Shown here piece by piece: positions 5,685 to 59,357 of a stretch of 64,000 nt of DNA. Position 1 is the first letter of the stretch; each line of letters begins with the position of its first letter. The notes beneath the pieces were generated by a model. That model did not search any database and had not been told where the DNA came from. It worked only from the letters and a program-made list of their open reading frames with translations. Origin of the DNA: Lytechinus pictus (taxonomy: Eukaryota). The stretch is taken from NCBI RefSeq assembly GCF_037042905.1, contig NC_087250.1:8372001-8436000 (forward strand), read 5' to 3'. Position numbers and translations under genes: made by a program.

Positions 5685-5743
5685 CTGTTCTGTCCCAATG
5701 AACTCAGAGGCTTGCAAATATTTTCCTGCATGCTCGTACTTAC

Positions 5744-5817: not shown

Positions 5818-6769
5818 CTAGAGAAGAAGAGATGGATTACTAACTTCACAAAGTCATATATATATTAATATAGAGTGGGCACCAGGCATGAGTAATTGCT
5901 GACGCATGGCCAGCCTTGCATCCGGTAATTACTTATGCATGCTTTATTTACCGGATGCATGGCAAGCCAGGTGTCAGTAATTACTTATGCATGGTTGTAC
6001 AAAATTGATTTTTTTTTCCCCAGAAAATTCCACCATCATATAAAACAAATGATACACAGGTTTGTTTGTGCATCGGTCGGGCTACTGAGCACGCGGTTAC
6101 TATGGAAACTAGTCTAAACCCACTTGGCTGAGCCTTGTGGGTTAAACACTTCCATAGTTACCTAATGCCCACAAAACTGAATATCACTTAATGCCGTCGC
6201 CGTTGCTCATTTACCAAATTACATACTCACTCGACTTCAATTGTTTTGTAACATAATCTTCTGGAATCATCATGTTCAAACAATGAACCAAGTTCAATTA
6301 CAATCGATCAGCAACATTTTTATTCTGACTCTGGACAATTGAGATCCTTCATACAACACTTGACTCATTAGGCCTTTATACCTGAGAGACAATTGAAAAT
6401 CACTTTAAAATTTAGCAGGGAATAATTTTGATTTACAAATTTGAATAACACTTTTGGTCATAAGAGAAAAGCTCTCAACTAAGTAATGTACAGTCCTATG
6501 GAAAAATATGCTGTACAAAAGACTTTATGCATAGCACTCTTTAAAAAATGTGGAGCAAATTCTGATGCCAGGAAAACTATTCCCTGTTCAGTGAGTAACT
6601 TTCACCAAGGTGACATTATTTTTATTTTCAAAGTACACAAAAAACAATGTACCTTTGCATAAACTGCCAAAAACAATATCTGTCAATAGAGCAAATCACA
6701 ATTTCAGTGTGACCTTCTGTTGATTTTATATTGCTAGGTTACATGTAGAAACATGTCAAATTCACAAAC

Positions 6770-6865
6770 CTCTCGACTCTGTCCCCTTATCCTCACTTTC
6801 TTCTAAGATCTCCTTCTGTAATCCCTGCTGACGCTGCATGAACATTGGTGGGTTGACCTGTACCC
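6770..6865 (-). CDS. Paralogue A coding exon 2 (aKRAB C-terminal part, GVQVNPPMFMQRQQGLQKEILEESEDKGTESR)
   Basis: cacag acceptor and GTTTGT donor, 96 bp, phase 1-1. The G-x4-P-P-x-F-M motif resembles the PRDM9 KRAB continuation (P.PAFM). Conserved in paralogue B. Confidence 0.8.
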
Positions 6866-7334
6866 CTGTGTATATAAAACAATTTTTTTTTCAATGTTGG
6901 TATGAAACACCTTTATTGACAAAAATCAAATTGAACATTGTTCAAACAAATTTTCAATGAAAAGATAATAGGATACACGTAATCTGATTATTTATAATGC
7001 GCTTAAGATATACATTGAACGTATCTAAGCGCTTACAGATTTATTTGTTACACCTGTCAATAGAATCATTCATTCCTGTACACAACGTATGCACATTCTC
7101 CACTCCCTGTGGAGTTTTCCAGCATATAATAAAGAAAATGCCCAATAATAGTTACATTTACATTGCGCTTCATATGACCCTGGTCATCAGATCCTGGCAT
7201 GCCCACACACAATTTACAGTATGCACTTTCTCCACTCCCTGGGAGTATTCAAACAAGAGCTCCTAGACAAAATATTTAGGCATACTAAATTGACTTTCAC
7301 ATCCTACCGGGTAGGCCTACCCATATAACACTTG

Positions 7335-7496
7335 GGCCCCATTGCATAAAAGTTACTAATATGGTAACTTTGCAATCCAATGGTTACTACATGTACCGTG
7401 GTAACAATGATCAACTGCCAATCAAAATCAAGGATTCCATGAAAGATGCCATTTCATGGCAGTTTCCATAATAATAAGTTTTATGCGACGAGGCCC
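7335..7496. mobile_element. Harbinger-type MITE shared by paralogues A and B (copy at ~40663-40816)
   Basis: ggccccattgcataaaa ... ttttatgcgacg(a/g)ggcc TIRs, with CTG flanks in the B copy. Confidence 0.6.
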
Positions 7497-8386
7497 TGGA
7501 TGGAGAGTGGCACAGTAGGGATGGACGCCTTGCCAAAGGAAGCAGGGCTGAAGTGGGATTCACACACGTGACAAGTGGCCTAGCTTCAAAGAATTTAAGG
7601 CCTGGACTACCAATGTTGCATAAAAGATCACCTCAAGATTCCTCAAACAAAAGAGATAAGACTATAGTTTGCTGACATTACTACTATGTCAAATAGTTGT
7701 CACTTTACATGTAGGTTGTTGTGAGCATGGAAAAGACATAATAGAACCAAACTTCAGTGACTCAATTGATGAAATTCTATTGGGTAATTTCTGTAAGTAC
7801 GTCCGACCCCATGTTTGTGGGACCTTCAAGAAATTTTCTGTCTCTGATTTCTTGTTCTTCTGACAGTCTGTAATGCTATCAAATGATTATGAATTGGTCA
7901 TTTTATGAAGTGATGTAAAACTTGAGAAAAATGGGGGTCGGATGTGCAAAAAAGGTTCATTATTTTATAGAATTGCCCTATTGACAACTTATTGTACCTA
8001 TATGTTTCTCTCATGACCCCCAAATTTGCAACATTCCCCCCCCCCCCCCCGAAATAATGAATGGACAAAAGTACCATTGACAAATTACTGCACTATGTAT
8101 GACTGCGTGTATCATAACTAATATTGCACACAAGCCAAACTTAAGTCTGGTAGGCGACTGACTTAGATTTAAGAAAAATACTTAGCCAAAAATACAGTTG
8201 AATACCAAAGATGGTTAAGTTTTACTCAAACAAAAATGCTGAGTAAAATACTTAATATTCTGGCCTAGGAATCAAATTGAATACCAGCCTAGGTCTTGAA
8301 TTATTCTAAGGAACAAAATTTCAATGGTTAAATTTTTTTTTTCCAATGAATGGAGAAAAGTTCTTCTGACAAATTACTGCACCTAC

Positions 8387-8522
8387 CAACTTCTATCATC
8401 ATCTCATAGTTTTCCTTGACATTCTGGATACAAATCCTCTCATAATCGCTGATATCTGCCCATTCATTGGCTGTGAAGTAAACCTGGACATCTGAATATT
8501 CATCTATCTTTGGCAAAGGCAT
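8387..8522 (-). CDS. Paralogue A first coding exon: ancestral KRAB (PRDM9/SSX-type aKRAB) domain
   Basis: MPLPKIDEYSDVQVYFTANEWADISDYERICIQNVKENYEMMIEV|G matches the KRAB-A pattern D-V-x-V-Y-F-T-x-x-E-W...N-V-K-x-N-Y. It has a GCCACCATG Kozak context, an in-frame upstream TAA, an acceptor before 8570 and a GTAGGT donor. Confidence 0.85.
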
Positions 8523-23087: not shown

Positions 23088-25186
23088 TTAACCAGTATGG
23101 ATTTGTTTGTGTACTGTGAGATTGGATTTTTCATTAAATGCCTTACCACATTGATCATATACATACATGTAGGGCTTCTCACCAGTATGGACTCGTTTAT
23201 GTCTTGTGAGGCTAGCTTTTCGACTAAACACTTTACCACATTGAACACATTCAAAGAGTTTCTCACCTGTATGGATGCGTTTATGTTTTGTGAGATCATC
23301 AGATCGATTAAATGCCTTACCACATTGATCACAAACATAGGGCTTCTCACCTGTATGGATCCATTTGTGTTTTCTCAATGAACTTCTGTCACTAAATGCC
23401 TTACCACACTGATCACACTCAAAGGGCTTCTCACCAGTATGGACTCGTTTATGGCTTGTAAGCCTAGCTTTTAGACTAAACACTTTACCACATTGAACAC
23501 ATACAAAGGGTTTCTCACCTGTATGGATGCGTTTATGTCTTGTGAGATCACCAGATCGATTAAATGCCTTACCACATTGATCACAAACATAGGGCTTCTC
23601 ACCTGTATGGATCCGTTTGTGTTTTCTCAATGAACTTCTGTCACTAAATGCCTTACCACACTGATCACACTCAAAGGGCTTCTCACCAGTATGGACTCGT
23701 TTATGGCGTGTGAGCCTAGCTTTTTGAATAAACATCTTACCACATTGAACACATGCAAAGGGTTTCTCACCTGTATGGATTCGTTTATGTGTTATGAGAT
23801 TGGATATTTCATTAAACGCCTTTCCACATTGATCACATAGATAGGGCTTTTTACCCGTATGGATGCGTTTATGTGTTTTAAGATGAGATTTATGATTAAA
23901 TGCCTTACCACATTGATCACATCGATGGGGCTTCTCACCTGTATGGATACGTTTGTGTACTGTGAGATTGGATTTTTTATAAAATGCCTTACCACATTGA
24001 TCACAAACATAGGGCTTCTCACCTGTATGGATCCGTTTGTGTTTTCTCAATGAACTTCTGTCACTAAATGCCTTACCACACTGATCACACTCAAAGGGCT
24101 TCTCACCAGTATGGACTCGTTTATGGCTTGTGAGCCTAGCTTTTTGAATAAACATCTTACCACATTGAACACATGCAAAGGGTTTCTCACCTGTATGGAT
24201 TCGTTTATGTGTTATGAGATTGGATATTTCATTAAACGCCTTTCCACATTGATCACATAGATAGGGCTTTTTACCCGTATGGATGCGTTTATGTGTTTTA
24301 AGATGAGATTTATGATTAAATGCCTTACCACATTGATCACATCGATGGGGCTTCTCACCTGTATGGATACGTTTGTGTACTGTGAGATTGGATTTTTTAT
24401 AAAATGCCTTACCACATTGATCACAAACATAGGGCTTCTCACCTGTATGGATCCGTTTGTGTTTTCTCAATGAACTTCTGTCACTAAATGCCTTACCACA
24501 CTGATCACACTCAAAGGGCTTCTCACCAGTATGGACTCGTTTATGGCTTGTGAGCCTAGCTTTTTGAATAAACATCTTACCACATTGAACACATGCAAAG
24601 GGTTTCTCACCTGTATGGATTCGTTTATGTGTTATGAGATTGGATATTTCATTAAACGCCTTTCCACATTGATCACATAGATAGGGCTTTTTACCCGTAT
24701 GGATGCGTTTATGTGTTTTAAGATGAGATTTATGATTAAATGCCTTACCACATTGATCACATCGATGGGGCTTCTCACCTGTATGGATACGTTTGTGTAC
24801 TGTGAGATTGGATTTTTTATAAAATGCCTTACCACATTGATCACATGCAAAGGGCTTTTCACCTGTATGGATTCGTGTATGTGTTGTTAGATGATTTACA
24901 GTAATAAACGCCTTACCACACTGATTACATACATAAGGTTTCTTTTCAAGTATCATATTTTCCATATTTCCTGTTTTCAAAATTATCTTTTCACCATGCA
25001 TAGAATCATTAATTTCACACATGGATTTTTGCATTTCTCCTTCAACAAACTTTAAAATGCTTTCCTTTGACGCATATGATGGCAAGACAACACCATTAAG
25101 CCCATGTTTGTACTTGAGATGCCTTGCTAAGATGAGAGGAATAGCATAGACTGATCCACAATACCCGCATCTGTAGATTTCACAAT
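23088..25186 (-). CDS. Paralogue B terminal exon: isolated C2H2 finger, spacer and 21 intact tandem C2H2 fingers (TGEKP linkers) plus one broken finger
   Basis: Lies in ORF 23088-25217. The ttttttctttaaag acceptor at 25187 is phase 1, matching the upstream exon ending at 34740. Confidence 0.93.
23561..24845 (-). repeat. Three near-identical 420-bp (5-finger) tandem blocks within the zinc-finger array
   Basis: Lines 23581/24001/24421 through 23941/24361/24781 are identical except at position 23708. Confidence 0.93.
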
Positions 25187-25799
25187 CTTTAAAGAAAAAA
25201 AAATACATATTCATCAATTATTTGAATGATTCATTGAGGTGACAGGTGCCCTATTACGTTCATCTATCATTAAATCTATATCCCACCGCTATAATGCGGG
25301 AACCTACATATTTCAGGTGACCCATATTTTGTTTCCCTCATTTAATAAGTGGTAAGCACCTTGCAGCTTCCCATGAGAGGTTATTATTTATTTTTATTTT
25401 TTTTACTTCAGCTGTATTTCTCATTTTCTTACATCATAGTTTAAACTCTTACTGGGGCTCTGCCCAATACGGACAGGAAAAATAGGAAATTTTTACTTGT
25501 TTTACAATAATTCCATGTCCAAAAAGTCACTCATGATTGAGATGAAGACCAAAATGAAAGTCTGAACGATGCAAAATGACACAGAATTTGCAATATAAAC
25601 AATTTTAACTGAAAACTGGCCTGCCAAGTCACGATGTGCGGAGCACATGGGGAGCTACATGTAGCTGTGCTTTCTCTCTCTCTCTCTCTCTCCCCCTCAT
25701 CAAGGTTGAGTCTCCAGGAGGGGGATTACACTGTGCCCCAGTTTAAATTATCTCAGCTTTGTCCAGAAGTGGTTTCAAGTATAAATGCTAGGTTATTAA

Positions 25800-26398
25800 T
25801 GTATTATGTAATTATGCAGTTATGTGTTGATGTGTATTTTGTGTCAATGAAGTTGTATTTAGGAATTGTATTCTGGGTATGGGGCAGATCAAAGTAAGGC
25901 CCCATCCTCTTGAGACAATGACCTTGCTTTCCCGCCTTTTTAGGGGGTAACTCAAATGCTCAATGTGCCGACACCCTATAGGGATGATTATAAATGTATT
26001 GTGGCAATATCCCGCCTTTTTAGGGACCCTCTTATTCCCAATGTAAAAGTGTGAGTGGGTGAGTGATTCCCTATGTCTTGGGTTGTGTGGAGCCAGCTAG
26101 CAAGAGCAACTATAGGAAGAAGGCCGGGTCAGATCACTTTCTGGAAAGGAGAGAGACCGCTTGTCTCCAGCTGCTCTGACTCTCCAAGGTCATGTTTCTC
26201 CTTTTGAAGATTTGTTTATTTCATGGCCAGTTGGTGAGATTTTAATCTGTCTTTTGAATGATTGGAAGAGGAGCTGTAGGAGTATGACACTAGCACTGGC
26301 CTACATTATGTAGTGGTATCTGTCCGGAGTATTGGCAAAGGCTGTTTTCCTTGTTATAAAAGAAAACTGTCGTCATTGGTTGAATCTCTTCATTATCA
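25800..26398. mobile_element. ~600-bp insertion, possibly a solo LTR
   Basis: Absent from the paralogue C intron (~62995). It has tg...ca ends, but the TSD is unclear. Confidence 0.35.
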
Positions 26399-27245
26399 TA
26401 ATGCTATATTATTACTGTGCTGAAAGGACTAGGTGTATATATTACAAAGGGCAAGAATAACACACACACAAGGTATCCTTGGAACAGGGGAGCGTTTCAT
26501 GAAAGGACTTGTCAGACATTTTATCCTACAAGTACTGTTTTATCTGAGAGTTACTATGGTAACAGTGCCTCTTGGCCAATCATAATCAAGGAAAGTTGTC
26601 AGACCTGAGAACTTGTCAGACGAAAATTTCGATGCAATGCTCCTCAGATATAACATTCTACATTTCACAACGCATTAAAATAAAACATTTGCCAAAGCTG
26701 TTGTCATCCGAACCATCGTATCACACATATGACGGTGCAAACCCATTTTAGAGAAAATCGGCTTCAAAGTTTACTACAATTTCCAAACTTTGTTCCCCAG
26801 CCTTACAACATAATCCTTGAAAGAAAAATACATGATCGGAAAGACCAAGACAATTGCTTGACATTTGTAACTTCATTTTTACATAAAACCAAGAATCAGA
26901 GAAAATATCGCAAAAGAGCTACATACTTATAATCTTGGTTTGAGCTGTTTATATTTTCTTTGTACATGAAAGCCATAGGAAATGTAACAACCCTGACCGT
27001 GAATTAAATGCACGTTATCAGTCAAAACGTTGTATCGCTCTTCCACGTGCAAAGTCGATGACGGTTCGGCTGACCACGTATTTGCATATTAAGTGAACGC
27101 AGCTATTGTTTGCTTTGCTACTGTACTCGTTTCCAATGGGATTTGCGCATTTTATCAACAATTTGTATGGCATCGCCGTGAAAATCCCAACATATCTCAG
27201 AAACTAAAATAAATTGCTGCCTAGAAATTTAAGTATGTAGAACAG

Positions 27246-30200
27246 GGCCCTGTTGCAAAAAAATTTATGTCATTATGACATAAATTTCGATCATGACATA
27301 AAATCATGCATAGCTTATGCCGTTGACATAAATTCTGTTGCATAAAAATATTTATGTATTGTTTTAGCTTATGACGCGATTTAATCATCATTACATAAAC
27401 TGAATAGTCATGAACGAGCCTGTTGACATAAACTTGGCATAAGTTGTCATTTTTCAGCCGCAGCAAGTTCTTGCGAAAAAGGATCATCGGCTTCCCATTT
27501 TGACGGGATAGAGGCATATTTTGGTATGTATCCAATTTCATTGTTATATATCATAGATAATAGATCTATCTCACGTTCTGACTAAAAATTAAAGTTTCTT
27601 AGTATAAAGAGATATTTTAAATTAATCATTATCGCCGTCAATTTTATGCAATGATTGCTTGTAAACTCTCCGGCTGCTTTTAGCCGTACAACGCCGGCAG
27701 TGCTAGCCGGAGGTTCCGGCGTCTGACACAGACAAATAATGCATAGAATCAACACCGTCAGAAAACAGTTTTAAATGATCTTCACGACATTGGACATTGT
27801 TTTTAAGGTTCCTGTGTCGGATGAACATGCGTGTCGGATGAACATGCATGTCGGATGAACATGCGTGGAATGAACACCGACAGAAAACAGTTTTAATTCA
27901 TCTTCACGACATATTAGACATTGATTTTTAAGGGTTTTTTTAGAGCACCCCCGCCCTTTCTGGAAAATTCTAAATCTAGTCAGTATATTGGTAGTCTTTC
28001 TAGAGTCTAAATTCTAACGTTAACAAGTTAGATCTAGTCTAGGCCTAATGTTAGATTCGACTAGACTAGTCTAGACCCTCTAGTTAGGGCCTAGACTAGA
28101 GTCTATCCAGCTCTGTCACTCACTGACCGTCGCGTCAGAGCCAGGCCCTAGACTTTCTAGCCCTCAGTAAAGTCTAAGACAAACTAAGTAAGAATAAGTT
28201 AGGGCCTAGCCAGGCCAGACCTATAATAAGTTATAACAGAGCCTATGTTAGTAGATAAAAAAGAATTAGGCTAGAGAGTAGAGCCTAGGTATGGCCTACC
28301 TCAAGCGAGGGTTCGTACATGTATAGGCTCCACTATAGATAGTACGTACTTCACTACCGCTACCGTCCGCTCCACTATCAGATACAAATGAGATAGGTTG
28401 AGTGGAGGGTAGCGGTAGTGAAGTGTATTGGAGCCTATAGTATACGAGCCCTCGCCTGAGGTAGACAGGGCCAGGCCCAAAGCCTATATTAGCTATATTA
28501 GCTTGGCCCCTTTTAAGTTCTAGTCTAGATCTGCAGTAGTCAGTAGATATATTCTGATCTAGTTTTCTATCTAGGGTCTTAGTTAGACTTAGACTAGTCA
28601 CTAGACCTCCCAGGTCTAGATCTAGATCTAAGAAATTTTAATTTGTCTTGGTTAGCCGAGCTGGCTCTACCATTGTATTACTGCTTTACTAGATCTACAT
28701 GTAGGCCTACCCCGGTTTGGGCCTTGGTTCTGGCCAGGGAATGAGGTGGTGCAGCCCTGCCCCTGGACCGGGTCTGGCTTGGGTTCCTTCCATTCATGCT
28801 TTTATTATAGATCAAAATCGAGACCTAATTCGGGACCCAATCTAGTTTAGCAATACAAGAGATCTGAAATAGATGTAGCTCAGGCAGAACGAACGATTGC
28901 TTGTAATTTATTTGTATATTCTAGGGCCCAAAATTGAAACTGTCTTTGCATCATTAGTAAGCTAATCATTTGTAGGGCCTATCTATCATAGATTATCTAA
29001 CACTATGGATCTACTAGAACTACAAATGTTACTCTAGATCCATTCTATGTCTAATCTTAAGCCTGGCTTCTTAACTCTGACATTAAAATTCAAATTGAGT
29101 CTAGTACTGTAGGTTCTAACTTAGACCTTTGGAAGGCGGGGCCTCTGCTGCCTACGCTACGGTGGTGGAGCCCCCTGGGTTTATGATAGAGCTATGGAAT
29201 AGGGTAGTCTAGCTCTAATATTGTTTTCTAATGACAGGGGTAGAGGCCTAGATCTAGTCAAGATTCATCAGTTGGAAGATGTGCACTACAATAACATGTA
29301 GAGTATTAGACCCTAGCCCTAGGAGCGAGTTGGGGGGGGGGGGTCCCTCTCTGTTAAGCAAAAAAAACTGAAATGATTGGTGTGTATTGTGATAAAATAA
29401 TATAGAAAACCCTGGGACACCCTCTGTGTTAACAAAGACTGGAGACTACTGAACAGGATGGGAAAGAAGGGGGGGGGAGAAGAATTACGCACTGAACTAA
29501 TTAATTTAAACACTGAACTGAAAAGACATGTAATTTCACAAAAAAACTTGTCTGATGAGACTGATGACTACATTGTATGTTGATATCTAATATAGATATT
29601 AATGTACATCTTCGATTTATATTTTAGACTCTTCCAATTTTAACAAAAGCAATGAGTTGAACATGCAGTAAAAAAAAAGAGATCTACATGTATGTATCCT
29701 CTGTGTTTTCTGATTTGAATATATTCTCTGCAAGCTGGCTGCTGGCCTGTAGACAAGCTACCTGTTTGCTAAGTTTAATACACTTCTGAGGATATAGTGC
29801 ACATTTTAGTTCTTTGATTTGTTTAACAGGTTAAAAACCTTATCAAATGCCTTTTCTATTAATTTTAAACCAATGCACAAGTAATATGTTTGGAGAAAAG
29901 GCATTTCCATTACCGGTAACTACAAGATTTGGTTTCTGATCTGTGGATAAAAATAACCATGATAATTGAAATTCTCTTGATGACTGTTATCAATAATTTT
30001 TTATACTATTTTCTATTTCCTTTACCTATTTACTCTAAAGGATTTTTCAGATAAATTATTAAAGGGGTGCTTTTTTTTAGAAAAAAAAAACCTTGGCAAT
30101 TTGAATTTTTAAAAATCCCAAATTTTTGTATAAATAATAGAATTATAAGGCCTACAATTTTCTTACCTATCAAAACCTATCTTCATTAGAAGTATTCACA

Positions 30201-33200
30201 TATTGCGTGTGTAAATCATTTTTCTAACATATTTTTCTAACAGAAAAAAGGAATTTGAAGCCTTAATGAAACACTTGTACTCTCCTTGCAATATTGCATC
30301 CTAAGTGATAAAGGTGCAAAAATTGACCTTGTCATTATTGTTTGCACCCAGAAATGTTCGTTTGCACAATAAAAGGGGCAACATTTTACCTTTTAAGGTG
30401 CATAATAATATTACTTAAACATTAAAAATGTTCAAATCTTTTAACCTTTATTACATGGTTCAAATCTGCTACACCCATAAAGGTGCACAAATGAGCATAA
30501 TTGCGCTCATTGGCACTCCTTATTGTACCAACCCCTAAGGTTCAAATTTGAACCTTCTTAGTGTTTTCATCAAACCATTTCAAGGTTGAATGACTAGACC
30601 TTATTTGCCTTTGATTAGTATTCTCAATGCACTCATGGATAGAATTCATTTTTACACAGTTCTGAAAATAGCCAGTGAAACTGTCCCAACACCCCTGTCA
30701 AATATATTTGACAAAATCTGTAATGATTAAAATATTTTTTTTTAAAGAAGGAACTTCAGTTGTTTATTCAAAATGTAAATATGAATTCATTCTCATATGT
30801 CACTATTAAAAAATTTGTATTCACTTTCCTAACAGTTGAACCACACAAACGGTGAGAAGAGGTAGAAATAAAGAGGGGGATTGCAACTGGAAGGAGATGG
30901 AAGTCCAGACACTCTGCCACTGTGTGCCATTGAACAAGAAATCTCTTTTAGTATGAAGGTAAGTTTTTATATAAAGTTGTGTTTATTAAATATTCTACTT
31001 GTAAATACAAGTATACTATACGGTAATATTTATTCTAATTTATTTTATTGTTTTTAAGAGCGGTTGTAAATGTGATGTACTGTTATATATCATTCATTTT
31101 CAAATATGAATCTCTTTTACAATTCATCTCATACAATTCATCTCAACAAAGAGACTAACAATGTGAGCTTACAAGCATAAACACAATATAAGTGCATTTA
31201 GGAATAAAATAGTGGTAGGAGTAGAAGGGAGAGGTCGCAAGTTGATAACATAAACATGACCTTGACCTCAATTTTGTGTTGTTGTATTTTTTCGCCAAAT
31301 ATGAACATTTTCTCCAATGACTTGATTGAAATGAAATATATTCTTACAACCATATAAGGGTATACAAAATAATATTCGGAGACTATTAACCCATTTTTTA
31401 TTTTACATTATATACATTTTTTTTATTTAAGCCTGTGATTGCAATCTCAAAAGGCTCTTTCATAATCTTGAAGAGATACATCATACATGCACATGTATGT
31501 GAACACTCTACTATTATAAAGTTGAGTTGCTAAAGTTGTTTTCACTTATTATTCTTATAATTTCAGATTATTCAAGGGTCAAGACTGTTGAAGACGTGAC
31601 GACATGGACCTGGTTGCACATGGCAAGGGAACTATCTGGTTGTACCCTGAAGTATTCGCTTTAAGATTTGAAAATTAGCAAAAGTACTAATTTTCATTTT
31701 TTCAGAGATAATAATCATTATATTGACATTGTGGATATCTTTTTATGATTGTTATCATAAAATTATTATAATGTTAATGATGATAGGTCATAATAATACA
31801 AATGAATTATAAGTAGAAAAGAAGACAACCAAAAATGAGGAGGAAAAGAAGAAGATGAAGAAGAAAAAGAAGAGGAGGGGTGGAAGAGGAGAAAAGGAGA
31901 AGAATAAATAACATCACTGTGAGTTCCTCTTCATGATATTACATAAATATTTGTCTCTTTTAAATGAAAATATTTATTAAGCATAAAAATAGGATTTAGT
32001 TATTCTTGTTTTTTAAGACGTATTATTATGTATCATGTTTGTAGTTGTACACTTGATTGAGGTACATGTATTGTATTCATTTAGGATATAAATAATATGT
32101 TTTATTTGAATCCATGTACCTCTTTAAAGGACAAGTCCACCCCAACAAAAAGTTGATTTGAATAAAAAGAGAAAAATCCAACAAGCATAACACTGAAAAT
32201 TTCATCAAAATCGGATGTAAAATAAGAAAGTAATGACATTTTAAAGTTTTGCTTAATTTCACAAAACAGTTATATGCACATTCTGGTGGGTATGCAAATG
32301 AGGTGACTGATGACGTCATCCACTCACTATTTCTTTGGTATTTTATAATATGAAATATGGAATATTCAATTTTTCTCCTCATTGTCAAGTGAAAGAACGA
32401 TTAATTCCTCCCTGAACATGTGGAATGAGCATTGTTTAATACTATATGATCAGTCAAGTTGTTCCTTATTGTCAAATCTATAAAAAAAGAAGAAATATAG
32501 TATAATTCAAACAATGAAAAACAAAAGAAATAGTGAGTTAGGGACATCATCGACTGTCTCGTTTGAGTTGTGCATACAATGTTTTGTGAAAAATAAGCAA
32601 AACTTTAAAATGTCATAACTTTCTTATTTTACATCCGATTTTGATGAAATTTTCAGCGTTTTGCTAGTTTGATTTTTCTCTTTTTATTTAAATCAAAATT
32701 TTCTGGGGTGGATTTGACCTTTGAATCATATTTATACAGTCATGATTAAAGGACATGGGACAGGTAACAAGATTACATTGTTTTACAAATTTTAGTGTGA
32801 TTTTATTTTAAAAGTAATAAATTTACATAAAATGTCATTCTTTTTGCTTCATCTCTTTGTTCGTTTTTTTTTATTGAATCGGGAGGGGGTGGAGTGTGGT
32901 AAAAATATGATTTGCCCCTCAGAACACACTTGTTTCTCTCCTAAAAATAGTAATTAATATTTGTAGAAAATTGTATGATTGTTTTTTTATGAACTCTGAA
33001 TATTGTCCCATAAATTGTCAAATTAGGAAAATAATTGATTGAGATGAAGATTTGAAGTAGGAAGGGCGAGAAATTAAAAGGAAATTCATATAAAAGTGAG
33101 AAAGATCCAGAGATGCAAAGATATATATATATATATAGGGAATAATGAGAGGGGGGGGGCGAGGTGAAGTAGAATGGGAAAGGGAAAGAAAAAAGTACTA

Positions 33201-34488
33201 TAAATGTGAAGGAGTCATTAACAGAGATAGATGTATTGAGAATTGAAGAGATAAGTTCCGAGAATGATAGTGGGCCAATCTCGGAGGGAGGATGATAATG
33301 AAAGGGGAAAAGAGGATAAAGCATTTTTTTTTTTGGGGGGGGATTACATTTGATGAGAGAGAGATGGACAGAAAATGGCCAGGTGCTCAAAGATGAAAAA
33401 ATATAAATGATGGGTGACAGTGGTATTGACATATTATATAATGTTACCATGGCAACACGATTTCCGACACATGTAAAAAAATGTCCTGTATTTGTCTTTA
33501 CCTCGAGACCAATGTGTGAGCCAAATTTCATGAGAATTGGTTGAAAACTAATCAAGTAGTTGGAACCAATATATTTTTACCCAATTTGGGGCTTATAATA
33601 TGTTGTAACCATGGCAACACAACTTCCAACACACACAAAATATGTGTCTCTCACACCTTTACCTCTCACTCAATGTGTGAACCAAATTCCAAGAGAATTG
33701 GTTGAAAATTTATGAAGAAATTAAAACTGAAAGTATTTTACCAATTTTTTGTCATATAATATGCCTTTACCATGGCAACATGATTTCTAACACACAAAAT
33801 AGGTTTTGGAGCTCGGGGAAGCAATCGCAATTCCAACACCAACGCCAAAACCGGACTTGAAGTCATCCAATGTGTGTACCAAATTTCTTGTTTAATCACA
33901 TCTGAATTAAGCACAAAAGGGGCGATTCTAGACTGAAAGTCAAAGTTATTATCATTATTTCGGGAGGGAGGGGTGGTGCTTGAAAAACATGAGACGTTGA
34001 TATATTAAATTATAATATTATTCTAAGGAAAATGTCCTATCCTAAAAAAATAAGCACAATAACTTTTATGCTTAGGCCTAGCTTTGCTTATAAAAATAAG
34101 GGAAATATTTACGATAATTATATTTTTTAATATTGAAAGAATACATCTTAGGCTATCCAATGACACAAAAATTATTTCGAAACTCCAAGTAAAACTCAAT
34201 ATATCATCAAAATTACAAAGGGCATAATTATAAAAAATAATCCTAAAATTACCCTTAAGTCACTTATTGCACAAAGCCGCAGGTTATGTCTTGATTTTAA
34301 TCACGACATAAATTTATGTCATTCAAATGGATTTATGTCATGATGTTATGTCGTGATTTATGACATAAAGCTTTATGCAACGGATTTATGTCAATATCTG
34401 TGTTTATGTCATGATTTATGCTGTATGACATAAATCGTGACATAAATCATGACATAAATCAATACATAAACTTTTTTGCAACAGGGCC
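27246..34488. mobile_element. 7.2-kb PIF/Harbinger-type element (apparently non-autonomous) in the last intron of paralogue B
   Basis: TIR GGCCCTGTTGCAAAAAA, 3-bp TSD CAG (27243-45 and 34489-91), and multiple subterminal TGACATAA/TTATGTCA motifs at both ends. Empty site agaacagatcttttac at ~63841. Confidence 0.85.
28297..28463. repeat. Imperfect palindrome (small MITE) within a CTAG-rich tract
   Basis: ctacctcaagcgagggttcgta..cttcactaccgctacc / ggtagcggtagtgaag..tacgagccctcgcctgaggtag. Confidence 0.65.
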
Positions 34489-34739
34489 CAGGTCTTTTAC
34501 TTTCAATTTCTGCAAAAATCTCAAAATAATTTTTTGACCATATTTGACTGATACAACGGTTCAAATGAACGCCGACGATGTGATCTCACACATCAATTTT
34601 CGAGAAACCAATATTCCTGTTGCATTCTAGTTTTCAAGAGCCAAATTAGGAGATGGACTAAATCATCAAGCCCCTTTAGTCATAAACAAATTCAATATTT
34701 CAGGGTATGGTTTAAGATTTTGGGGCTACACACACTTAC

Positions 34740-35157
34740 CCTTTTCAATTATGGATTGGAATTGGGTTAGAGTCTTGCTACCTCCTGAAGCTTCTTCTGC
34801 CTTCTGATCACATGACAGAATGATGAGATCACCTGACTTGGTCCTCTGATCACCTGATGATATTGGATTGGTTTGTGTCTGGGTAATTTCATCATAGTTC
34901 TTCCATTCCAGATCATTGATTTTCCCTTCTGCATTGTGATTAGCCTCACCTATTTTTGCCTTCTGGTCACACGATGGAGAGATGAGATCACCTGACTTGG
35001 TCCTCTGATCACGTGATAATATTGGATTGGTTTGTGTCTGGGTAATTTCATCATAGTTCTTCCATTCCAGATCAGTAATTTTCCCTTCCGCATTGTGATA
35101 AGCCTCACCTAGCAGATTGCCATCATCATCATACTCAGTCTCTAATTTTATAGTAAA
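34740..35157 (-). CDS. Paralogue B coding exon 4 (acidic linker FTIKLETEYDDDG..., with an internal 159-bp/53-aa duplication)
   Basis: cttcatatttag acceptor, 418 bp open in phase 0 to 1, GTAAGT donor at 34739. Confidence 0.78.
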
Positions 35158-35621
35158 CTAAATATGAAGAAACAAAGAATTAAAAAAATCAAGTTACTAA
35201 CCATTCAAAAAATAAATTAAACCAAACATTTTGACATGTAAGATAATGCAACAAAAACACATGCTATTAGCAATATACCAGCACACTGTAAGTAAAATTA
35301 CTATAGAAATGTGGGATCATTATTTAAGCATATGCCAGAACTTAGCCCAGGACATCCTTTCATAATGCTGATTGTAAGTTAAGAATAAGAGTGACTTTAA
35401 AAATGACTGGTGAACTATCGCCAATTCAATATATTATTTATTACAAGAAAGGATCACCAGTCATTCTTAAAGTCACTCTTAACTTAATACGAACAGCTTT
35501 ATGAAACACCCACCTGGATTAAAAAATGTATTATCTTGTCATCATTGGCAGTTAAGTATGTACTAATGTGTCCTAATGAGCTCAGAGACACGCAAATATT
35601 TTCTCGCATGCTTGTACTTAC

Positions 35622-35701
35622 TGTATTCAAATTCTCTTTATGTAACTCATTCTTCTCTGCATGACATGTATTTCCCTGTTGATTATGAACGTCAGAAGAC
35701 C
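35622..35701 (-). CDS. Paralogue B coding exon 3 (GSSDVHNQQGNTCHAEKNELHKENLNT)
   Basis: ttctctag acceptor and GTAAGT donor, phase 1 to 0. Lies within ORF 35499-35828 and is conserved in paralogue A. Confidence 0.78.
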
Positions 35702-35854
35702 CTAGAGAAGAAAATAGATGGATTACTAAACTACACACCGGCAAATATAAACCCCTCAAAAAAAGTTTGGAAATCTGAGTTTGGCCATTAATTTCTCCCA
35801 AATTTACACAATGCATGTTTGATATCATTCAAAAGATCATTCAATTATCTTTAA

Positions 35855-36917
35855 CTCTATGTCCGCCATGCACGGAATCCCCCATTGCCGGATTAATTCT
35901 GTGGACACCAGAAATGGGTGCTCTGGATTTGCATGCGCAGTTTACATGGCTGTAACTTTTTTATGCTTTTTCCTACAGAAAAATGTTCTACAGTAAAGTT
36001 GTAGAGTATGAAATTAGCTTTCTATTGATGTTTATTTTATAAATATTTACTTCTGTTTAGAAGATATATATCACTGATCAATGGAAACCTTCAAGTTTCA
36101 ATTGGCAAACTATAAGTGTACCGGCTATTCATTCCCAGATTTTTACAAAATATGAGAACTTTGGTGAACATCATGTAAGATGATGCAAAAGTTCAGATTA
36201 TAAGCTTTCTATACATAACAAATACATGGGTGAAAATAAACAAGCTACTTATAACCCCTTAGTCAAAGAATAATAGTACAAGCCCAATACTCTAAGCCTA
36301 GGCTATTTTTTTTTCAATGGCAAGGCAGGAAGTGCAGCTTAGGGAGCTTAGCTTTTGTGATTGATAGCATTGTTTCTTGCTCTTATTGTGACCCCCTGAT
36401 AGAAATGTAATGAAAAATCAATATGCCTTCTTGGGTATATGTGGTAATGATAATGTATTGCAATGCTGTAGATGAATAGACTGTTTGACACCTCTCCCCT
36501 GTGACTCTGACATGTATTTGCAAAGTAGTTTGTAGACTCAATACAAATAATTTCCCTTGGACTCAGAATCACTGCCCTCGGAATCAGAGTCAGCCGCTGG
36601 AAGTGAAGCCATAATCGAATCTCGAACTTCATCGGGAGAGAAAAGTCGCTGTCTCCTTCGACCAGAGACCATCTCAAAACTTGTGGAAACAGTCCAAACA
36701 ATGTCACTTTTCTCAAAAAAGTCGAATGGGAACGATATGTAATCAACTAATGTCAGGGAGCGTGCGAGTGTTTAGAACGCGATGCGAATAACACAATGGC
36801 GTGTGTACACACAATCCAATATAAATCAATGTAATCGGATTGTCGTGAGATTTGTGCCGATCGGCGTACTTGGCGAAGCAGCAAGTGTGCCAGTCGGCGA
36901 ACTTGGCGGACAAAGAG
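35855..36917. mobile_element. piggyBac-like non-autonomous element nested in a larger ~35745-39537 insertion absent from paralogue A
   Basis: TTAA|ctctatgtccgcca ... tggcggacaaagag|TTAA. Confidence 0.65.
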
Positions 36918-36966
36918 TTAAAATGATACCATGCTTGTTATGACCATGCCATCACAAAAAGAGCTG

Positions 36967-38964
36967 GGGCGGTATTCTGAAAACGTTCTTATCTTAATTT
37001 TGTTCTTATCTACGTCACGTTCTCAAATTGGTATTCTGAAAACGTTTTTATCTTTTTCTTATCTTTTGTTCTTATCTTTTTCTTATCTTGCTTTCCATCG
37101 ATGCTGAGCGCGTAAATTTATAATTCGCGCATATGATACAAAAGTGCGCTAAAAGATAAGAACAAAATAAAGATAAGTGGTATTCTGAAAACGTTCTTAT
37201 CTTTTTTCTTTCTTATCTCTTTACCATATTTATGATAATATTTAAGATAGCTAGAGGGTTATCACATCTTACGCTGTCCACCTTCTTTCTTGCTAAAAAT
37301 CGATGGCCACTGGTAGTAACAAGTATTCCTCCCAACCTTTTTTTCATTCACCCTTTATTTTGCCTGTCTCTTTTTTCTATCCCTTTTTTCTTTCTTTCTT
37401 TTTTTCTTTATTCCTTTCTTTCGTCCTTCCTTTCGTTCTGTCTTTCTTTATTTCATTTAGGCCTATTTCTTTTCGCTTTTTCTTCCTTTCTATCTGTTTG
37501 TCTTTTTTCATTTCTTTCATTCTTCATTTTGTTTTATTCTTTTGAATCTTTTAACTTCTTCCTTATTTTTTTTTGCGTTATTTTATTTATTCTTTCTTTT
37601 TCTTTTTTTAAAATGAATTTATTTCCGTTAAAAACAAATAACAATACATATAAAATTATACATGTGAATTGATAAATGAAAAACGGGAGGATGGCCCTGC
37701 TCAGCAACATCAATCATGGTGCTGCTGGTCTACCGAGGGGTCCTTCCTTTTTTATTTTCCCTTTCCGATTTTTTTACCTTTTTTTCTTTACTAAGTTTTT
37801 TTTCTTTCACCTTTTCTCTCTTTCTTTCTGTTCTTTTTTCCTTTCTTCCTTCACTTTATTTATTTTTGTAATCTTTTTATTTCTTCATTTTTTAGGGTAA
37901 ATTATACTTCACTTTTTTCTTTATTCTTTCCATTAATCTTTCTTCGTTTTTCATTCATTCTTCATTTTTCCTGCCTTTTTATTTTCCCTTTCTTTTTCTT
38001 TCCTTCTTTGAATTTACCTTTCTTTTTATCTTTATTTAGTTTTCAATTTTGCTTTACTTTTCCTTTCATCTTTTATCTTCCCTCTCTTATCTCTTTCTTT
38101 CTCTCCCTCTCTTTCTTTATATCTTTGTTTCATTTTCCCTTTTTCTCTCTTCCTTCACTTTTTACATATTTTTATTCCTTCCTTTTTCTACTTTCTTTCA
38201 TTCGTTTTTTCTAACTTTTTTTGGTTCTTTTTTCCTTCATTTTATCCCTTTTAATCTGTTTATTTTGTACTTTTTCGTTTTTTCCCCTTCAAGTTTTTTA
38301 TTCCTATTCCTTCTTTATTTTTCCTTCAATTTTATATTCCTCTTTTTATCATTGATTATCATTCTATGTATTCCTCCTTTTTCTTTCTTGTATTCTTTCC
38401 TTTTTATTTCTTTTCATTTTTTAAATTTTCTTTAAAGTTCCTTTTGCTTGCTTTCTTTCGTTTACCTTTTCTTTCTTTCATTGTTTTCTGCATTGATCCT
38501 TCTATTTTTTTAAATTTCTGCTTCATTCTGACCATTTTCTGTCTTCTTACTTACCTACTTACTTTACTTATTTCGTCCTGTTTTATTCATATTCGTAACT
38601 GCTTTCTTTACCTTTTTTCTTTACTTTCTTTCTTTCTTTATTTTGTGCACGTGTCTCGAAATAATAATCAGTCATTGCGTATAAAATGCCTATTTCCCGC
38701 AGTGCGCAAGAAACAGTGCACGCGCAGCGCCCATGATATTCTCTACACATAAGGAACGCTTTTATTGGTTAAACTGCCAATATAAAGCGCATTTTGATTG
38801 GTAATATCTTAAAAATGGGCGTGTTGAAGATAAGAAGGAGGCAGTCCTTACAGAGATAAGAACGCGTTAAGAAGATTTTCAGAATACCGATTTGCAATGA
38901 TTTTAGCGTCTTCTTATCTCATTGAGATAAGAACAAAGATAAGAACGTTTTCAGAATACCACCC
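36967..38964. mobile_element. Harbinger-like element carrying a long pyrimidine-rich low-complexity tract
   Basis: TIR gggcggtattctgaaaacgttcttatc / gataagaacgttttcagaataccaccc with CTG/CAG flanks and repeated subterminal cttatc motifs. Confidence 0.65.
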
Positions 38965-40088
38965 CAGGATTCAAAAGTGTTGGATGAGGTCTGAATTGAA
39001 AAGCTGCAAAACGAACAGAAAAAGTCATGAAGGGTCAATACAGAACATGATTCTTTTGTCTGTGTCAATCGAGATGAAAATCCATTCAAATCAAGCCCCT
39101 GCTTCTTCATTTTTATGTTTTGTAGCGGTTTATGAAGTGATTCTGTAAGATAACATGGTTTGAGTCGTGGTTTGAAATACCCATGCATGTTTGTTTCTTA
39201 TGTGTTTGCTTGTTCAGAGGTGTGTTTGATTGCATGTTAATGTTGATGTTAAGGTGCATGAAAACAATAAAAAGAAACCGCTGAGAAACTCACTCATCAC
39301 CATGGAAAAAGAACAGTGACTTTCAATATTGTGTCATTTTGCAACTTTTGAATTTTGACCTTGCCCCACATTTCAAAGCACTGCAACTCCATGTGAACCA
39401 TAATCATATCATGAAGGGTATCATTTTAAAGAGAATTAAATGATCAATTTATTGATATTAGTTACACATTGATATTTACTAAAACCGAGGAGAGATTATC
39501 GATCAAAGTCAGATTAAACTTTTTTTTTGTTTATATTGTTATAGAATGGGTACACTAATGATGCATGGCCAGGCATGCATCCAGTAATTACTCATCAATG
39601 GTTGTAAAAAATGGATTTTTCTCCAGAAAATTCAGTCATTCTATCAAACAAATGATACACAGGTTCTTGTATATTAATCAATGCCACCGCCATTGCTGAT
39701 GTAATTTACATAGTCACTCAACTTCAATTTTTTGTTAAATACAGTTATGTTCTGGAATCATCTTCAATTCCAATCAATCAGCAACAATTTTATTCTGACT
39801 CTGGACAATTGTGAATATTTGTGATACATCATACAACACATGACTCATTAGGCCTTAATAATTGAAAGACAAGACATTTGAAAATCACCTCAAAATTTAG
39901 TGCGTAACTTTCACAAAGAAGGTGATATTATCTTTATTTTTCTAAGGACACAATCAACAATTTACTTTTGCATAAATTGCCCCCAAAACAATATCTGTCA
40001 ATAGAGCAAGTCACAATTTCACAGTGTAACTTTCTGTTGATATTATATTGCTAGTTACATACATGTAGAAACATGTCAATTCACAAAC

Positions 40089-40184
40089 CTTTTGTCTCTG
40101 TCCCCTTATCGTCACTTTCCTCAATTATCTGTTTATGAATTCCTTGCTGACGCTGCATGAACATTGGTGGGTTGACCTGTACCC
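40089..40184 (-). CDS. Paralogue B coding exon 2 (GVQVNPPMFMQRQQGIHKQIIEESDDKGTETK)
   Basis: cacag acceptor and GTTTGT donor, 96 bp, phase 1-1. Paralogous to 6865-6770. Confidence 0.8.
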
Positions 40185-41631
40185 CTGTGTATGAAAAAAT
40201 AAAAATTGCTTTTTCAACGTTGGTATGAAACACCAATATTGACCAAAAAAATGAATATTATTCAAACAAGTTTCCTATGAAAAGATAATAATCTGATTAT
40301 TGATAATGATAAGATATACATTGAACGTATATAATCGCTTACAGATTTATTTATTGTTACCCCTGTAAATAGAATCAATCATTCATTCCTGCACACAATG
40401 CATGCACATTCCCCACTCCCTATGGAGTTTTCCAGCATATAATTAAAATAGAATGCCCAATAATAGTTACATTTATATTACGCTTCATACATTACATTTC
40501 TCAGCAATAATAACCCCGGTCATCAGGTCCTGGCATGCCCACACACAATTTACAGTATGCACTTTCTCCGCTCCGTTCCAAAAAGAGTTCCTAGTCTCAA
40601 TATTTAGGAATACTAAATAGACTTTCACACCCTACCGGGTAGGCCTACCCATATAAGACCTGGGCCCCATTGCATAAAAGTTACATGGTAAGTTTACCAT
40701 CCAATGGTAAACTACCATGGTAACAATGATCAACTGCCAATCAAAATCAAGGATTCCATGAAAGATGCCATTTCGTGGCAAAGTTTCTATAATGGTAAGT
40801 TTTATGCGACGGGGCCCTGGATGGAGTGGCACGGTACGATAGACGCCTTGCCAAAGGACGCTAGGCTGAAGTGGGATTCACACACGTGACAAGTGGCCTA
40901 GCTTAAAAGAATTTAAGGCCTGGACTACCAATGCTGCATAAAAGAACACCTCAAGATTCCTCAAACAAAAGATATAAGACTCTAATTTGCTGACATTATG
41001 GCCCAAATTCACAAAGGTGGTTTTGAAAACCCATGGTTGAGTCCATGGTTTACCGGTATTCAGATTTCCTGTATAAATCACGCTTAATTTACCGCGTATC
41101 GGGCGCGTGCATAAAAAATGTCCTATGCTGATGCACGCTTTTGTCACAGTGCGCCAAATTGACGCCTGTTACCATGGTTTAGATACGCTACTTTATCCAT
41201 GAGTCCACTGTTTGAAGTAATTTATACAGGAAATGTGCATAAACCATGGACTCAACCGTGGGTTTTAAAAACCACCTTTGTGAATTCGGGCCTATAGCTC
41301 TCACTTTACATGTAGGTTGTTGTGAGCATGGAAAAGACATAATAGAACCAAACTTCAGTGACTCAATTGATGAAATTCTATTGGGCAATTTCAACATGTA
41401 CATCCGACGGTCTGACCCCATGTTTGAGGGACCTTCATGAAATTTTCTCTGAATTCTTGTTCTTTTGACAGTCTGTAAAGCTCCCCAAAAGGTTGATTAT
41501 TTTATAGAATTGCCTTATTGACAGCTTATTGTACCTATATATACCTTCTCTCACGACCCCCAAATTTTCAACATTTTTTTTCCCGAAATAATGAATGGAC
41601 AAAAGCTCCATTGACAAATTACTGCACCTAC

Positions 41632-41767
41632 CAACTTGTATCATCATCTCATAGTTTTCCTTGACATTCTGGATACAAATCCTTTCGTAATCGCTGATAT
41701 CTGCCCATTCATTGGCTGTGAAGTAAACCTGGACATCTGAATATTCATCTGTCATTGGCAGAGGCAT
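41632..41767 (-). CDS. Paralogue B first coding exon: ancestral KRAB (aKRAB) domain
   Basis: MPLPMTDEYSDVQVYFTANEWADISDYERICIQNVKENYEMMIQV|G, with GCCACCATG context, an acceptor before 41815 and a GTAGGT donor at 41631. Confidence 0.87.
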
Positions 41768-42443
41768 GGTGGCATCACTTTACTTGGAATCCGAAGTGAA
41801 GAAACCAAGATTTTCCTAGGATGGAGAAGGATAAATTAAGACGAGTACCAAGTCTCATGCTTTATTTAGGATTCTTGCTAATCCCCCCCCCCATTCCCTT
41901 CTCATGGCTGTATTAACGGTCTATCCCCAGATACACAATTTCAGAGACAGTCTCCAGTTTGGGAGACCAATATCTATTTCCTCTGTTCTCATTTGCTGCA
42001 AAAGGATTACCTTGGCAGCAAATAAATATGTGATAAGCAGATTCCTCATGAAAAATTACCCCTTTCCACCGTCTACTTTAAAAATTCACCGTCTACTTTC
42101 GCTTTGAAAAGGATTTTTGTTGTCACCCACACTAAACAAATGGGCTTCTGACCTCAGTGAGATTTGCGTGCTGTCACCAAGCGAAAGATAATGACATCAA
42201 GATGGCTACGTAAACACGGTGGCAAATTTTTCCCGTCTTTTCGTAACATTTTTCTCGTTTTTTGAATGAATTCTTGTTTAAAGATGAAATTGATATCGTA
42301 GAAATGTCGGAAATGAAGTTGTATCCCATGTACATGATTTTAGGGCTAGATCTTTACTATTGTACTATGAGTGCCCATGGCCGATCCACGCCGTATACCG
42401 GTACGTGCCGTACGCCACCAGCACCGCGCCATTCGAACTCGAC

Positions 42444-58209: not shown

Positions 58210-59357
<1,148 letters not shown>

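Follow-up and report, generated by a model that had tools for sequence, protein, structure and literature searches.

Introduction

Gene A, the subject of this study, is a KRAB and C2H2 zinc-finger gene on the minus strand of a 64-kb stretch of the sea urchin genome of Lytechinus pictus (C6:8372001-8436000; hereafter the window, in which position 1 is the first letter). The described systems closest to it are PRDM9 (Meisetz) and the KRAB zinc-finger proteins (KZFPs) of vertebrates, whose genes, in the accepted account, go back to a single origin from a PRDM9-like gene of the common ancestor of coelacanths and tetrapods. KRAB domains of the ancestral class are marked by one residue fewer at VMLE, by E instead of Q at A24 and by PxxFM after the A box (PMC8835667), and the MLE motif has been linked to binding of TRIM28/KAP1 (PMC8835667; PMC3971581). 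The KRAB of mammalian PRDM9 was described as a protein-interaction module needed for meiosis (PMC5688218; PMC5341731), and the N-terminal portion of human PRDM9, including KRAB, as showing no transcriptional repression in reporter assays (PMC3912051).

A KRAB-bearing PRDM9 orthologue has been placed in sea urchin (PMC8835667; PMC3912051; PMC4592553; PMC6745500), and it was stated that 'PRDM9 is unique in invertebrate genomes' (PMC3971581), a view found likewise in PMC6745500 and PMC4592553. Truncated paralogues of PRDM9 are known in vertebrates and cnidarians (PMC5519329; bioRxiv 10.64898/2026.09.07.749791), and sea urchin was named among the species with many poorly characterised zinc-finger genes (ZNFs) predicted to match transposons (PMC10547256). 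In full-text searches of the literature no description of a KRAB-finger family without a SET domain (SET-less) in echinoderms was found; Table S1 of PMC8835667 (666 ancestral KRAB entries) may list further urchin entries.

An initial, sequence-only reading of the window had proposed that gene A is a PRDM9 derivative which lost its methyltransferase and independently arrived at the KRAB zinc-finger architecture, apparently in an invertebrate. The source is indeed an invertebrate, the sea urchin L. pictus. In the present analysis the gene was compared with urchin and vertebrate PRDM9, with vertebrate KZFPs and with its own relatives in the L. pictus genome, where it is no singular case and forms one of at least 25 clustered SET-less units.

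Results

Structure and transcription of gene A

Gene A comprises five coding exons of 136, 96, 80, 418 and 2099 bp, all on the minus strand, the borders of which were read directly from the sequence. Every intron starts with GT and ends with AG, and a scripted join by coordinates gave a coding sequence of 2829 nt, i.e., 942 codons followed by a single terminal stop, which bears out the five-exon model of the sequence-only reading and newly assigns the coordinates of exon 3. The coding part of exon 1 (41632..41767) runs from an ATG at 41767 through a KRAB-A-type box and ends in phase 1 before GTAGGT; exon 2 (40089..40184, phase 1 to 1) encodes an acidic tail besides a KRAB-B-type stretch of the ancestral kind, whose PxxFM motif reads PPMFM. 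Exon 3 (35622..35701, phase 1 to 0) is a short and poorly conserved linker exon. Out of five candidate 80-bp open segments between AG and GT only 35701..35622 possesses a pyrimidine tract and a GTAAGT donor; it lies within a block conserved with paralogue B of the same window, and its peptide is also present in the public L. pictus model P0027. The PRDM9-like linker, with an internal duplication of ~53 residues, is encoded by exon 4 (34740..35157). Exon 5 (23088..25186, stop included), with a T-rich tract and AG just before its first base at 25186, encodes a lone finger, a spacer, 21 C2H2 fingers and a degenerate last unit, so that the protein reads PRDM9-type KRAB, PRDM9-like linker, lone "post-SET" finger and array. 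Position 41815, formerly taken as the outer end of the gene, stands directly after an AG and may be the acceptor of an upstream untranslated exon.

Raw reads of three stranded RNA-seq runs with L. pictus label (X21, X22, X23) were placed on positions 24900-41900. All four junctions of gene A, as proposed from the sequence, occurred at exactly the predicted bases in all three runs: 41632|40184 with 41, 51 and 24 reads in X21, X22 and X23, respectively, 40089|35701 with 13, 11 and 5, 35622|35157 with 28, 40 and 27 (here with one synonymous base difference in the three letters at the start of exon 4), and 34740|25186, by which the linker exon is joined directly to the finger exon, with 6, 8 and 5. 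The first mate lay on the plus strand in every junction read, which in most stranded libraries corresponds to RNA of the minus strand.

Absence of SSXRD and PR/SET

Searches for SSXRD used the SSXRD-like stretch of urchin PRDM9-like proteins, which aligns with mouse SSXRD. The Pfam SSXRD model detects the mouse version and misses that of urchins at E<=0.01. When urchin PRDM9-like proteins and their SET-less relatives were compared with the 64-kb window by tblastn, exons 1, 2, 4 and 5 of gene A and exons of two paralogues were matched, and nothing from the SSXRD-SET segment at E<=10. A profile of this segment reached at best E=1.3 over the 2840 six-frame open reading frames (ORFs) of the window, compared with 1.8e-46 in a PRDM9-like control locus, and none of the 71 ORFs (>=45 residues) in the last intron of gene A contained any Pfam family. 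Gene A could be aligned in full with echinoderm, gar and mouse PRDM9, leaving a gap, closely bounded by linker and lone finger, that corresponds to the SSXRD-like stretch, the zinc knuckle and PR/SET; of the parts of full-length PRDM9, PR/SET and SSXRD are those that gene A does not have.

Both PRDM9-like control loci consist of eight coding exons, three of which (SSXRD, SET-a, SET-b) stand between linker and finger exons, and in this interval none of eight sampled SET-less loci matched the SSXRD-SET segment at E<=1e-3. The claim that the two domains are missing was in this way substantiated, and so was the short last intron, said to be the same in paralogue C: an insertion of ~7.26 kb (27231..34488), which paralogues C and F lack at the corresponding place, takes up most of the present intron, and ~2.3 kb remain without it. 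The breakpoints of the deletion could not be placed, nucleotide similarity between gene A and PRDM9-like loci being confined to exons.

KRAB domain

The 45-residue peptide of exon 1 passed the gathering cut-off of the Pfam KRAB family (PF01352) narrowly, with 20.9 against 20.4 bits (E 2.7e-4), and a Pfam scan of exons 2-4 gave no family. By phmmer against 1.84 billion (1.84e9) representatives the same peptide found 51 proteins at E<=1e-3, among them the mouse PRDM9 cluster (whole-library E 4.1e-4), a coelacanth KZFP, tetrapod KZFPs and several Lytechinus proteins; 47 of the 51 were scanned with Pfam, and 24 had KRAB (23 above the cut-off) and nine PR/SET. A profile of the urchin KRAB exons scored 63-65 bits on rodent PRDM9 over positions 6-74, i.e., nearly full length, and only 13-30 bits on modern KRABs, over the best stretch. 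A search of PDB sequences with exon 1 returned no KRAB chain, only ferritins at E 0.5-1.

In the alignments three marks of the ancestral class were recognised in gene A, namely NV-KENY in place of DVMLENY, E at A24 (DYERI) and PPMFM after the A box; at the place of the ancestral 'DI' it has DV. Of the DV and MLE residues of modern KRABs, stated to be required for TRIM28 binding (PMC3971581; PMC8835667), DV is present and ML absent (V-KE). Pfam, the match to mouse PRDM9 and the urchin profile agree with the earlier assignment to a KRAB of PRDM9 type. The 96-bp phase 1-1 unit of exon 2, with PxxFM stretch and acidic tail, occurs in three tandem copies in P0004 and P0011.

Linker, lone finger and finger array

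In direct comparison, too, gene A resembles the SET-bearing PRDM9-like proteins of urchins. Its exon 1 is 70% identical to the N-terminus of P0007 of L. pictus, the linker of exon 4 is 59% identical by tblastn to that of P0007 and P0008, and exon 2 was likewise matched by urchin PRDM9-like proteins. The lone finger (25104..25169, minus strand; CxxC-12-HxxxxH) is the homologue of the PRDM9 post-SET finger: it is 65-78% identical to its counterpart in urchin PRDM9-like proteins, aligns with the post-SET finger of mouse PRDM9 and is nearly invariant across six local paralogues. As in PRDM9, a KRAB, a post-SET lone finger and a terminal C2H2 array contained in one exon occur together in gene A, and the sequence-only reading was right in calling the last exon PRDM9-like.

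Pfam zf-C2H2 was found in 22 stretches of exon 5, and the list of its fingers agrees with the lone finger, spacer and 21 fingers described before. Within the array three tandem blocks of 420 bp with five fingers each (23592..24851, minus strand; TRF periods 420 and 84) are identical at 416-419 of 420 bases, a sign of internal duplication in the very recent past. Of the amino-acid diversity, the four contact positions account for a share of 0.37 in gene A and 0.31 in paralogue C, compared with 0.14 if it were uniform. To judge from the sequences, the arrays turn over quickly.

Phylogenetic position

The main tree was calculated from 221 shared columns (KRAB, linker, lone finger, spacer), with the SET segment excluded. 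All eight SET-less rows formed one clade (support 96/92), which was present in 98% of bootstrap trees and nested in the echinoid clade; PRDM9 of mouse and gar served as the outgroup. The SET-bearing copies of Lytechinus are nearly identical to each other and the SET-less copies far more diverged. An earlier tree was dropped, in which 34 of the columns kept had aligned SET residues to unrelated linker residues.

In a second tree, built on KRAB only (75 columns; 37 rows, SSX not among them), the KRABs of coelacanth and tetrapods formed a group of their own (93/88), and gene A was placed within an ambulacrarian PRDM9-like group (88/80). The KRAB phylogeny, for which PRDM9 and vertebrate KZFPs were the relevant comparison, therefore joins gene A to PRDM9-like KRABs of Ambulacraria and not to KZFPs. 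The tree pattern fits a single loss of three exons with subsequent amplification, which would suffice to explain it. An origin separate from that of vertebrate KZFPs seems likely, with both trees in favour and modest support. Descent from PRDM9 with loss of the methyltransferase is upheld by the nesting of SET-less genes among echinoid PRDM9-like genes along with the absence of SSXRD and SET, and the independent arrival at the KRAB zinc-finger architecture by both trees, which set gene A apart from the KRABs of KZFPs.

A protein of a cartilaginous fish, P0118 of sawshark ('zinc finger protein 419-like'), combines KRAB with fingers and is without SET; by its KRAB it falls with vertebrate PRDM9 (90/78), not with KZFPs, and it may be another separate SET-less derivative of PRDM9.

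Family and cluster in the L. pictus genome

Genome searches covered the assembly of 811.7 Mb, and the counts obtained are lower bounds. The exon-1 peptide was found at 28 places, none of them with a stop, and the start of the lone-finger exon at 34, where open frames extend over 48-1401 residues (315-1401 in 33 of them). All 28 KRAB exons have a lone-finger exon on the same strand 5.7-25 kb downstream; SET lies between the two in three units and is absent in 25, and six lone-finger matches have no paired KRAB exon. The PR/SET part of P0007 was recovered at 92-99% identity at three loci only, all on C6; locus L025 encodes P0007 with 100% identity.

The local cluster on C6 contains one SET-bearing gene, matching P0028, at 8.184-8.194 Mb and, 57 kb from it at the nearest, six SET-less genes at 8.25-8.474 Mb, of which only F is on the plus strand, the others (D, E, B, A and C) being on the minus strand. 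Two neighbours of gene A reach into the window, and both are complete genes. Paralogue B has its exons 1-3 at 5730..8522 on the minus strand (exon 1 ~8387-8522, exon 2 ~6768-6866, exon 3 ~5730-5809, by blastn and tblastn), with exon 4 and the finger exon just left of the window (locus L015). The finger exon of paralogue C (59361..61466, minus strand) is a 702-residue open frame with the lone finger and 20 further fingers, as determined by ORF and Pfam analysis, and exons 1-4 follow just right of the window (locus L016). In the six local paralogues, compared over exon 1 and the lone-finger region, the ratio of nonsynonymous to synonymous substitution rates (dN/dS) was 0.17-0.61 in all 15 pairs, with dS of 0.04-0.28, which indicates that the KRAB and lone-finger parts are under purifying selection.

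A search for relatives seeded on lone finger and spacer yielded 26 proteins at E<=1e-3 among 52 candidates. SET-bearing PRDM9-like relatives from urchins are P0007 and P0008, together with the partial models P0012 and P0003; P0004, P0009, P0010, P0011 and P0018 (L. variegatus, L. pictus) have no SET and otherwise the same KRAB, linker, lone finger and array. Pfam PR/SET was detected in four of four SET-bearing and none of six SET-less relatives, P0027 being counted among the latter. The SET-less public models are named only 'zinc finger protein ...-like'; the sequences themselves are thus already public as automatic models in two Lytechinus species, under generic names. P0171 of Strongylocentrotus purpuratus was rejected as a SET-less member, as it keeps an SSXRD-like stretch and its array is then read out of frame; it resembles a modelled isoform of a SET-bearing gene in which exons are skipped. 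Because of this rejection, the SET-less family is shown for Lytechinus only.

Several further arrangements of the same modules were observed. KRAB and linker are fused to other domains in the public L. pictus models P0069, P0039 and P0124, to which locus L024 (C17:2055400-2065399) may be added; P0069 and P0039 have THAP before KRAB and no fingers, and in P0124 a PHD finger is inserted before the lone finger. In P0115 KRAB is joined to a fragment of V-ATPase subunit C, and this may be a chimeric model. Contig C8 (e.g., 7.45-7.66, 22.75-24.74 and 35.3 Mb) holds 45 of the 55 PR/SET exon matches in the assembly, dozens of them with 39-60% identity to the PRDM9-like SET, which suggests a second large expansion, of SET-plus-finger genes; P0060, P0061 and P0063, with SET, 17-18 fingers and no KRAB match, may be compared with it. 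Paralogue C is followed, ~800 bp beyond its stop, by a remnant with three to four finger units (58208-58509 of the window), and this in turn by sequence resembling the 3' flank of gene A (58083-58210).

The last-intron insert and other features of the window

The insertion in the last intron of gene A has terminal inverted repeats of ~25-30 bp and is flanked by a duplicated 3-bp sequence (CAG); inside it are repeated subterminal motifs and nested high-copy repeats. Duplications of three bases are made by PIF/Harbinger elements. The ORFs of the insert contain no Pfam family and no transposase domain. The features fit a non-autonomous cut-and-paste element, with membership in the Harbinger superfamily not proven; of the 'Harbinger' label given to it at first, the inverted repeats and the CAG duplication are in agreement, and a transposase ORF is missing.

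A high-copy repeat inside the insert (32124-32722) has four further copies in the window (16707-17314, 17316-16709 in inverted orientation, 17741-18139 and 20350-20761); RNA reads cover it on both strands, and contigs of run X1 have a very high depth there (~50,000). Contigs of X1 also show plus-strand joints of 27522 with 30835 and of 30956 with 31565, with GT..AG ends; the segment 27522-31565 looks like spliced RNA antisense to gene A within the insert, and its ORFs contain no Pfam family. Inside intron 3 of gene A, at 35443-35518, many RNA reads switch strand or stop, with strand-switch joints at 35443/35445 and 35488 and ~200 loose read ends per run, and this segment looks like an expressed inverted repeat or transposon end. 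Two long low-complexity stretches (37300-38700 and 49400-50600) are 64-74% identical in opposite orientation; one strand is rich in codons for Phe, Leu and Ser, the other in codons for Lys, Glu and Arg. Positions 1-4000, which are inside the enlarged intron 3 of paralogue B, have a G+C content of 0.43-0.53, compared with ~0.35 elsewhere.

Discussion

Descent and predicted action of gene A

We are fairly confident that gene A is an intact, transcribed member of a PRDM9-descended urchin family whose product would work as a general DNA-binding adaptor. Gene structure, transcription, descent and family size are demonstrated by the present data, and the mode of action is a prediction. Its ancestor would have been PRDM9-like with eight coding exons (KRAB, KRAB-B, short linker, long linker, SSXRD/zinc knuckle, two for PR/SET, finger exon). 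The three exons for SSXRD and PR/SET were presumably lost, the long-linker exon came to be spliced straight to the finger exon, and the SET-less gene would then have multiplied into clusters by tandem duplication. Through its long and fast-changing array the protein is predicted to bind DNA sequence-specifically and to bring the ancestral-type KRAB, a protein-interaction module, to the bound sites. It would not itself methylate H3K4 or H3K36, because the PR/SET domain required for writing histone marks is lacking, and its action would be limited to recruiting KRAB partners to these sites or to blocking them. Recruitment of TRIM28 is not expected, since the KRAB lacks the modern MLE motif.

As to the role served, a lineage-specific regulator or repressor of repeats and transposons seems the most likely, at somewhat less than an even chance; it is favoured because of the clustered amplification, the turnover of the arrays and the sea-urchin ZNFs predicted to match transposons in PMC10547256, and by analogy to expanded zinc-finger families of other kinds. 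Most of what is left, once a meiotic role is set aside, would fall to a selected function of another kind. A more far-reaching proposal is offered only tentatively: urchins may have re-run the origin of KZFPs by dropping the SSXRD and methyltransferase exons and expanding the arrays, and the products may police transposons or satellites (or tune recombination) via partners of the ancestral KRAB, without binding of TRIM28 type. The structural and evolutionary half of this proposal we regard as highly probable.

Several observations weigh against these interpretations. The margin by which gene A passes the Pfam KRAB cut-off is slim, five of six public SET-less relatives remain below it (17.9-18.3 bits), and at E<=0.01 Pfam KRAB was not reported for P0004 nor for the SET-bearing P0007 and P0008. 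The KRAB-only tree is weakly supported, with 75/86 for the urchin SET-less group in addition to the value for the ambulacrarian group. Some copies on C21 score identically and could be assembly duplicates. Most RNA reads placed on gene A are 95-99% alike and not above 99% (in X21, 2006 of 2410) and carry fixed differences at several positions of the exons; their source is a different individual or allele or, conceivably, a paralogue of very close sequence. At the exon 2/3 junction a second form, in which 25 letters are replaced (25, 14 and 8 reads in X21, X22 and X23), probably derives from an allele or paralogue with a P0027-like end of exon 2. Diversity is concentrated at contact residues to a moderate degree, as it is in many zinc-finger genes. 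Finally, DNA binding, partners and repression are inferred.

Alternative explanations

Among the alternatives considered, it is conceivable, if unlikely, that the SET-less proteins serve as meiotic modulators or decoys of PRDM9, which would occupy its motifs or pair with it via the array, compete for KRAB partners and so reshape recombination starts without marking chromatin. The parts of PRDM9 that in mammals bind partners and multimerise are both kept, the KRAB (PMC5688218; PMC5341731) and the finger array (PMC6643046); linker and lone finger are conserved as well, and the cluster includes a SET-bearing PRDM9-like gene, at 57 kb from its closest SET-less neighbour. At least 25 diverged copies, however, exceed what a decoy would apparently need, and the fusions of the same KRAB and linker to THAP or PHD point to general roles in chromatin and transcription. 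A different view would regard gene A and its relatives as decaying by-products of PRDM9 duplication, transcribed and devoid of selected function, as truncated PRDM9 paralogues are common and many of them thought to be short-lived (bioRxiv 10.64898/2026.09.07.749791), and gene A did receive a 7-kb transposon insertion in its intron recently. This we consider improbable in face of the intact frame of 942 codons, canonical splice sites used in RNA, 28 of 28 KRAB exons free of stops, 33 of 34 finger-exon matches open for 315-1401 residues, dN/dS below 1 in every one of the 15 pairs and an architecture common to two Lytechinus species.

Two further explanations concern the origin of the gene and not its role. 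A SET-less KRAB zinc-finger gene could already have been present in the deuterostome ancestor, from which the vertebrate KZFPs would descend as well; the two share domain order and exon logic, with KRAB exons followed by one finger exon, and the exon-1 peptide also matches KZFPs of coelacanth and tetrapods. The SET-less genes nest, however, in the echinoid PRDM9-like clade with mouse and gar PRDM9 outside, the KRABs of KZFPs (93/88) are separate from the ambulacrarian group to which gene A belongs (88/80), and the urchin-specific linker with the post-SET lone finger is common only to urchin PRDM9-like genes, all of which makes shared ancestry of this kind very improbable. That the SET-less product is a mere alternative isoform or an artefact of assembly or annotation, with SET exons of the real gene elsewhere, may be suspected from the S. 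purpuratus model P0171, which skips the SET exons and leads from KRAB and SSXRD straight to the lone finger. Yet the whole window contained no SSXRD or SET with a positive control that worked, the junction 34740|25186 was seen directly in RNA, paralogues C and F have the same short intron without these exons, and none of the eight sampled SET-less loci has them, so that this explanation is scarcely credible. Loss of SSXRD and SET in the urchin lineage, followed by amplification, is the reading preferred here.

Comparison with known systems

The meaning of the locus lies in its bearing on the single origin of KRAB zinc-finger genes, as at least 25 SET-less PRDM9 derivatives in a sea urchin would represent a second, independent instance of that transition, with SET-bearing relatives still adjoining. 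Questions which thereby become testable are the effect of an ancestral KRAB tethered to DNA without a methyltransferase, whether the expansion of SET-less genes tracks transposon activity, and what has to change for a recombination factor to become a family of transcription factors. Since laboratory breeding and gene editing are both feasible in L. pictus, such tests should be practical.

Closest to gene A is PRDM9/Meisetz, especially in the form of the urchin PRDM9-like genes (P0007 and P0028 of L. pictus, P0008 of L. variegatus), with which it shares the ancestral KRAB with PxxFM, the urchin-specific linker, the lone finger before the array, a like layout of the first four exons and the last one, and the C2H2 array in one 3' exon. 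Unlike these, gene A is without the three exons for SSXRD/zinc knuckle and PR/SET, hence without a methyltransferase, and without the conserved W of the acidic tail after KRAB; SET-less copies are also many and diverged, whereas the SET-bearing ones are three and near-identical. The SSX family has KRAB followed by SSXRD and no fingers, whereas gene A lacks SSXRD and has 22 fingers.

Vertebrate KZFPs, especially those of coelacanth with their ancestral-type KRAB, resemble gene A in combining KRAB and poly-C2H2 without SET (so far as PMC8835667 and PMC6745500 describe them), in an exon layout with small 5' exons for KRAB and a single one for the array, and in tandem clusters and fast change of the array. 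A KRAB and C2H2 array without catalytic domains in tandem clusters is likewise what the six SET-less genes in C6:8.25-8.474 Mb present, but common descent with the coelacanth and tetrapod clade was found in neither tree: the origin of the urchin genes appears separate, and gene A keeps the PRDM9-type linker and lone finger that KZFPs lack. From modern KZFPs it differs, moreover, by V-KE where these have VMLE, the motif described as needed for TRIM28/KAP1 binding (PMC8835667; PMC3971581).

The truncated PRDM9 paralogues of teleosts and cnidarians are similar in birth-and-death duplication, domain loss and tandem position near full-length copies (PMC5519329; bioRxiv 10.64898/2026.09.07.749791). 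As these sources present them, however, they keep SET (SZ, kXSZ, S), whereas the urchin genes lost SET and SSXRD and kept KRAB, and it is in the urchin that the truncated form expanded (25 versus 3). The FiNZ-ZNFs of cyprinid fish, finally, are comparable in that a short N-terminal domain has an exon to itself, a further exon encodes the finger array, and the genes have undergone large expansions in clusters, as outlined in PMC10547256; in contrast to them, the N-terminal domain of the urchin family is no novel domain but a recognisable KRAB homologue of known ancestry.

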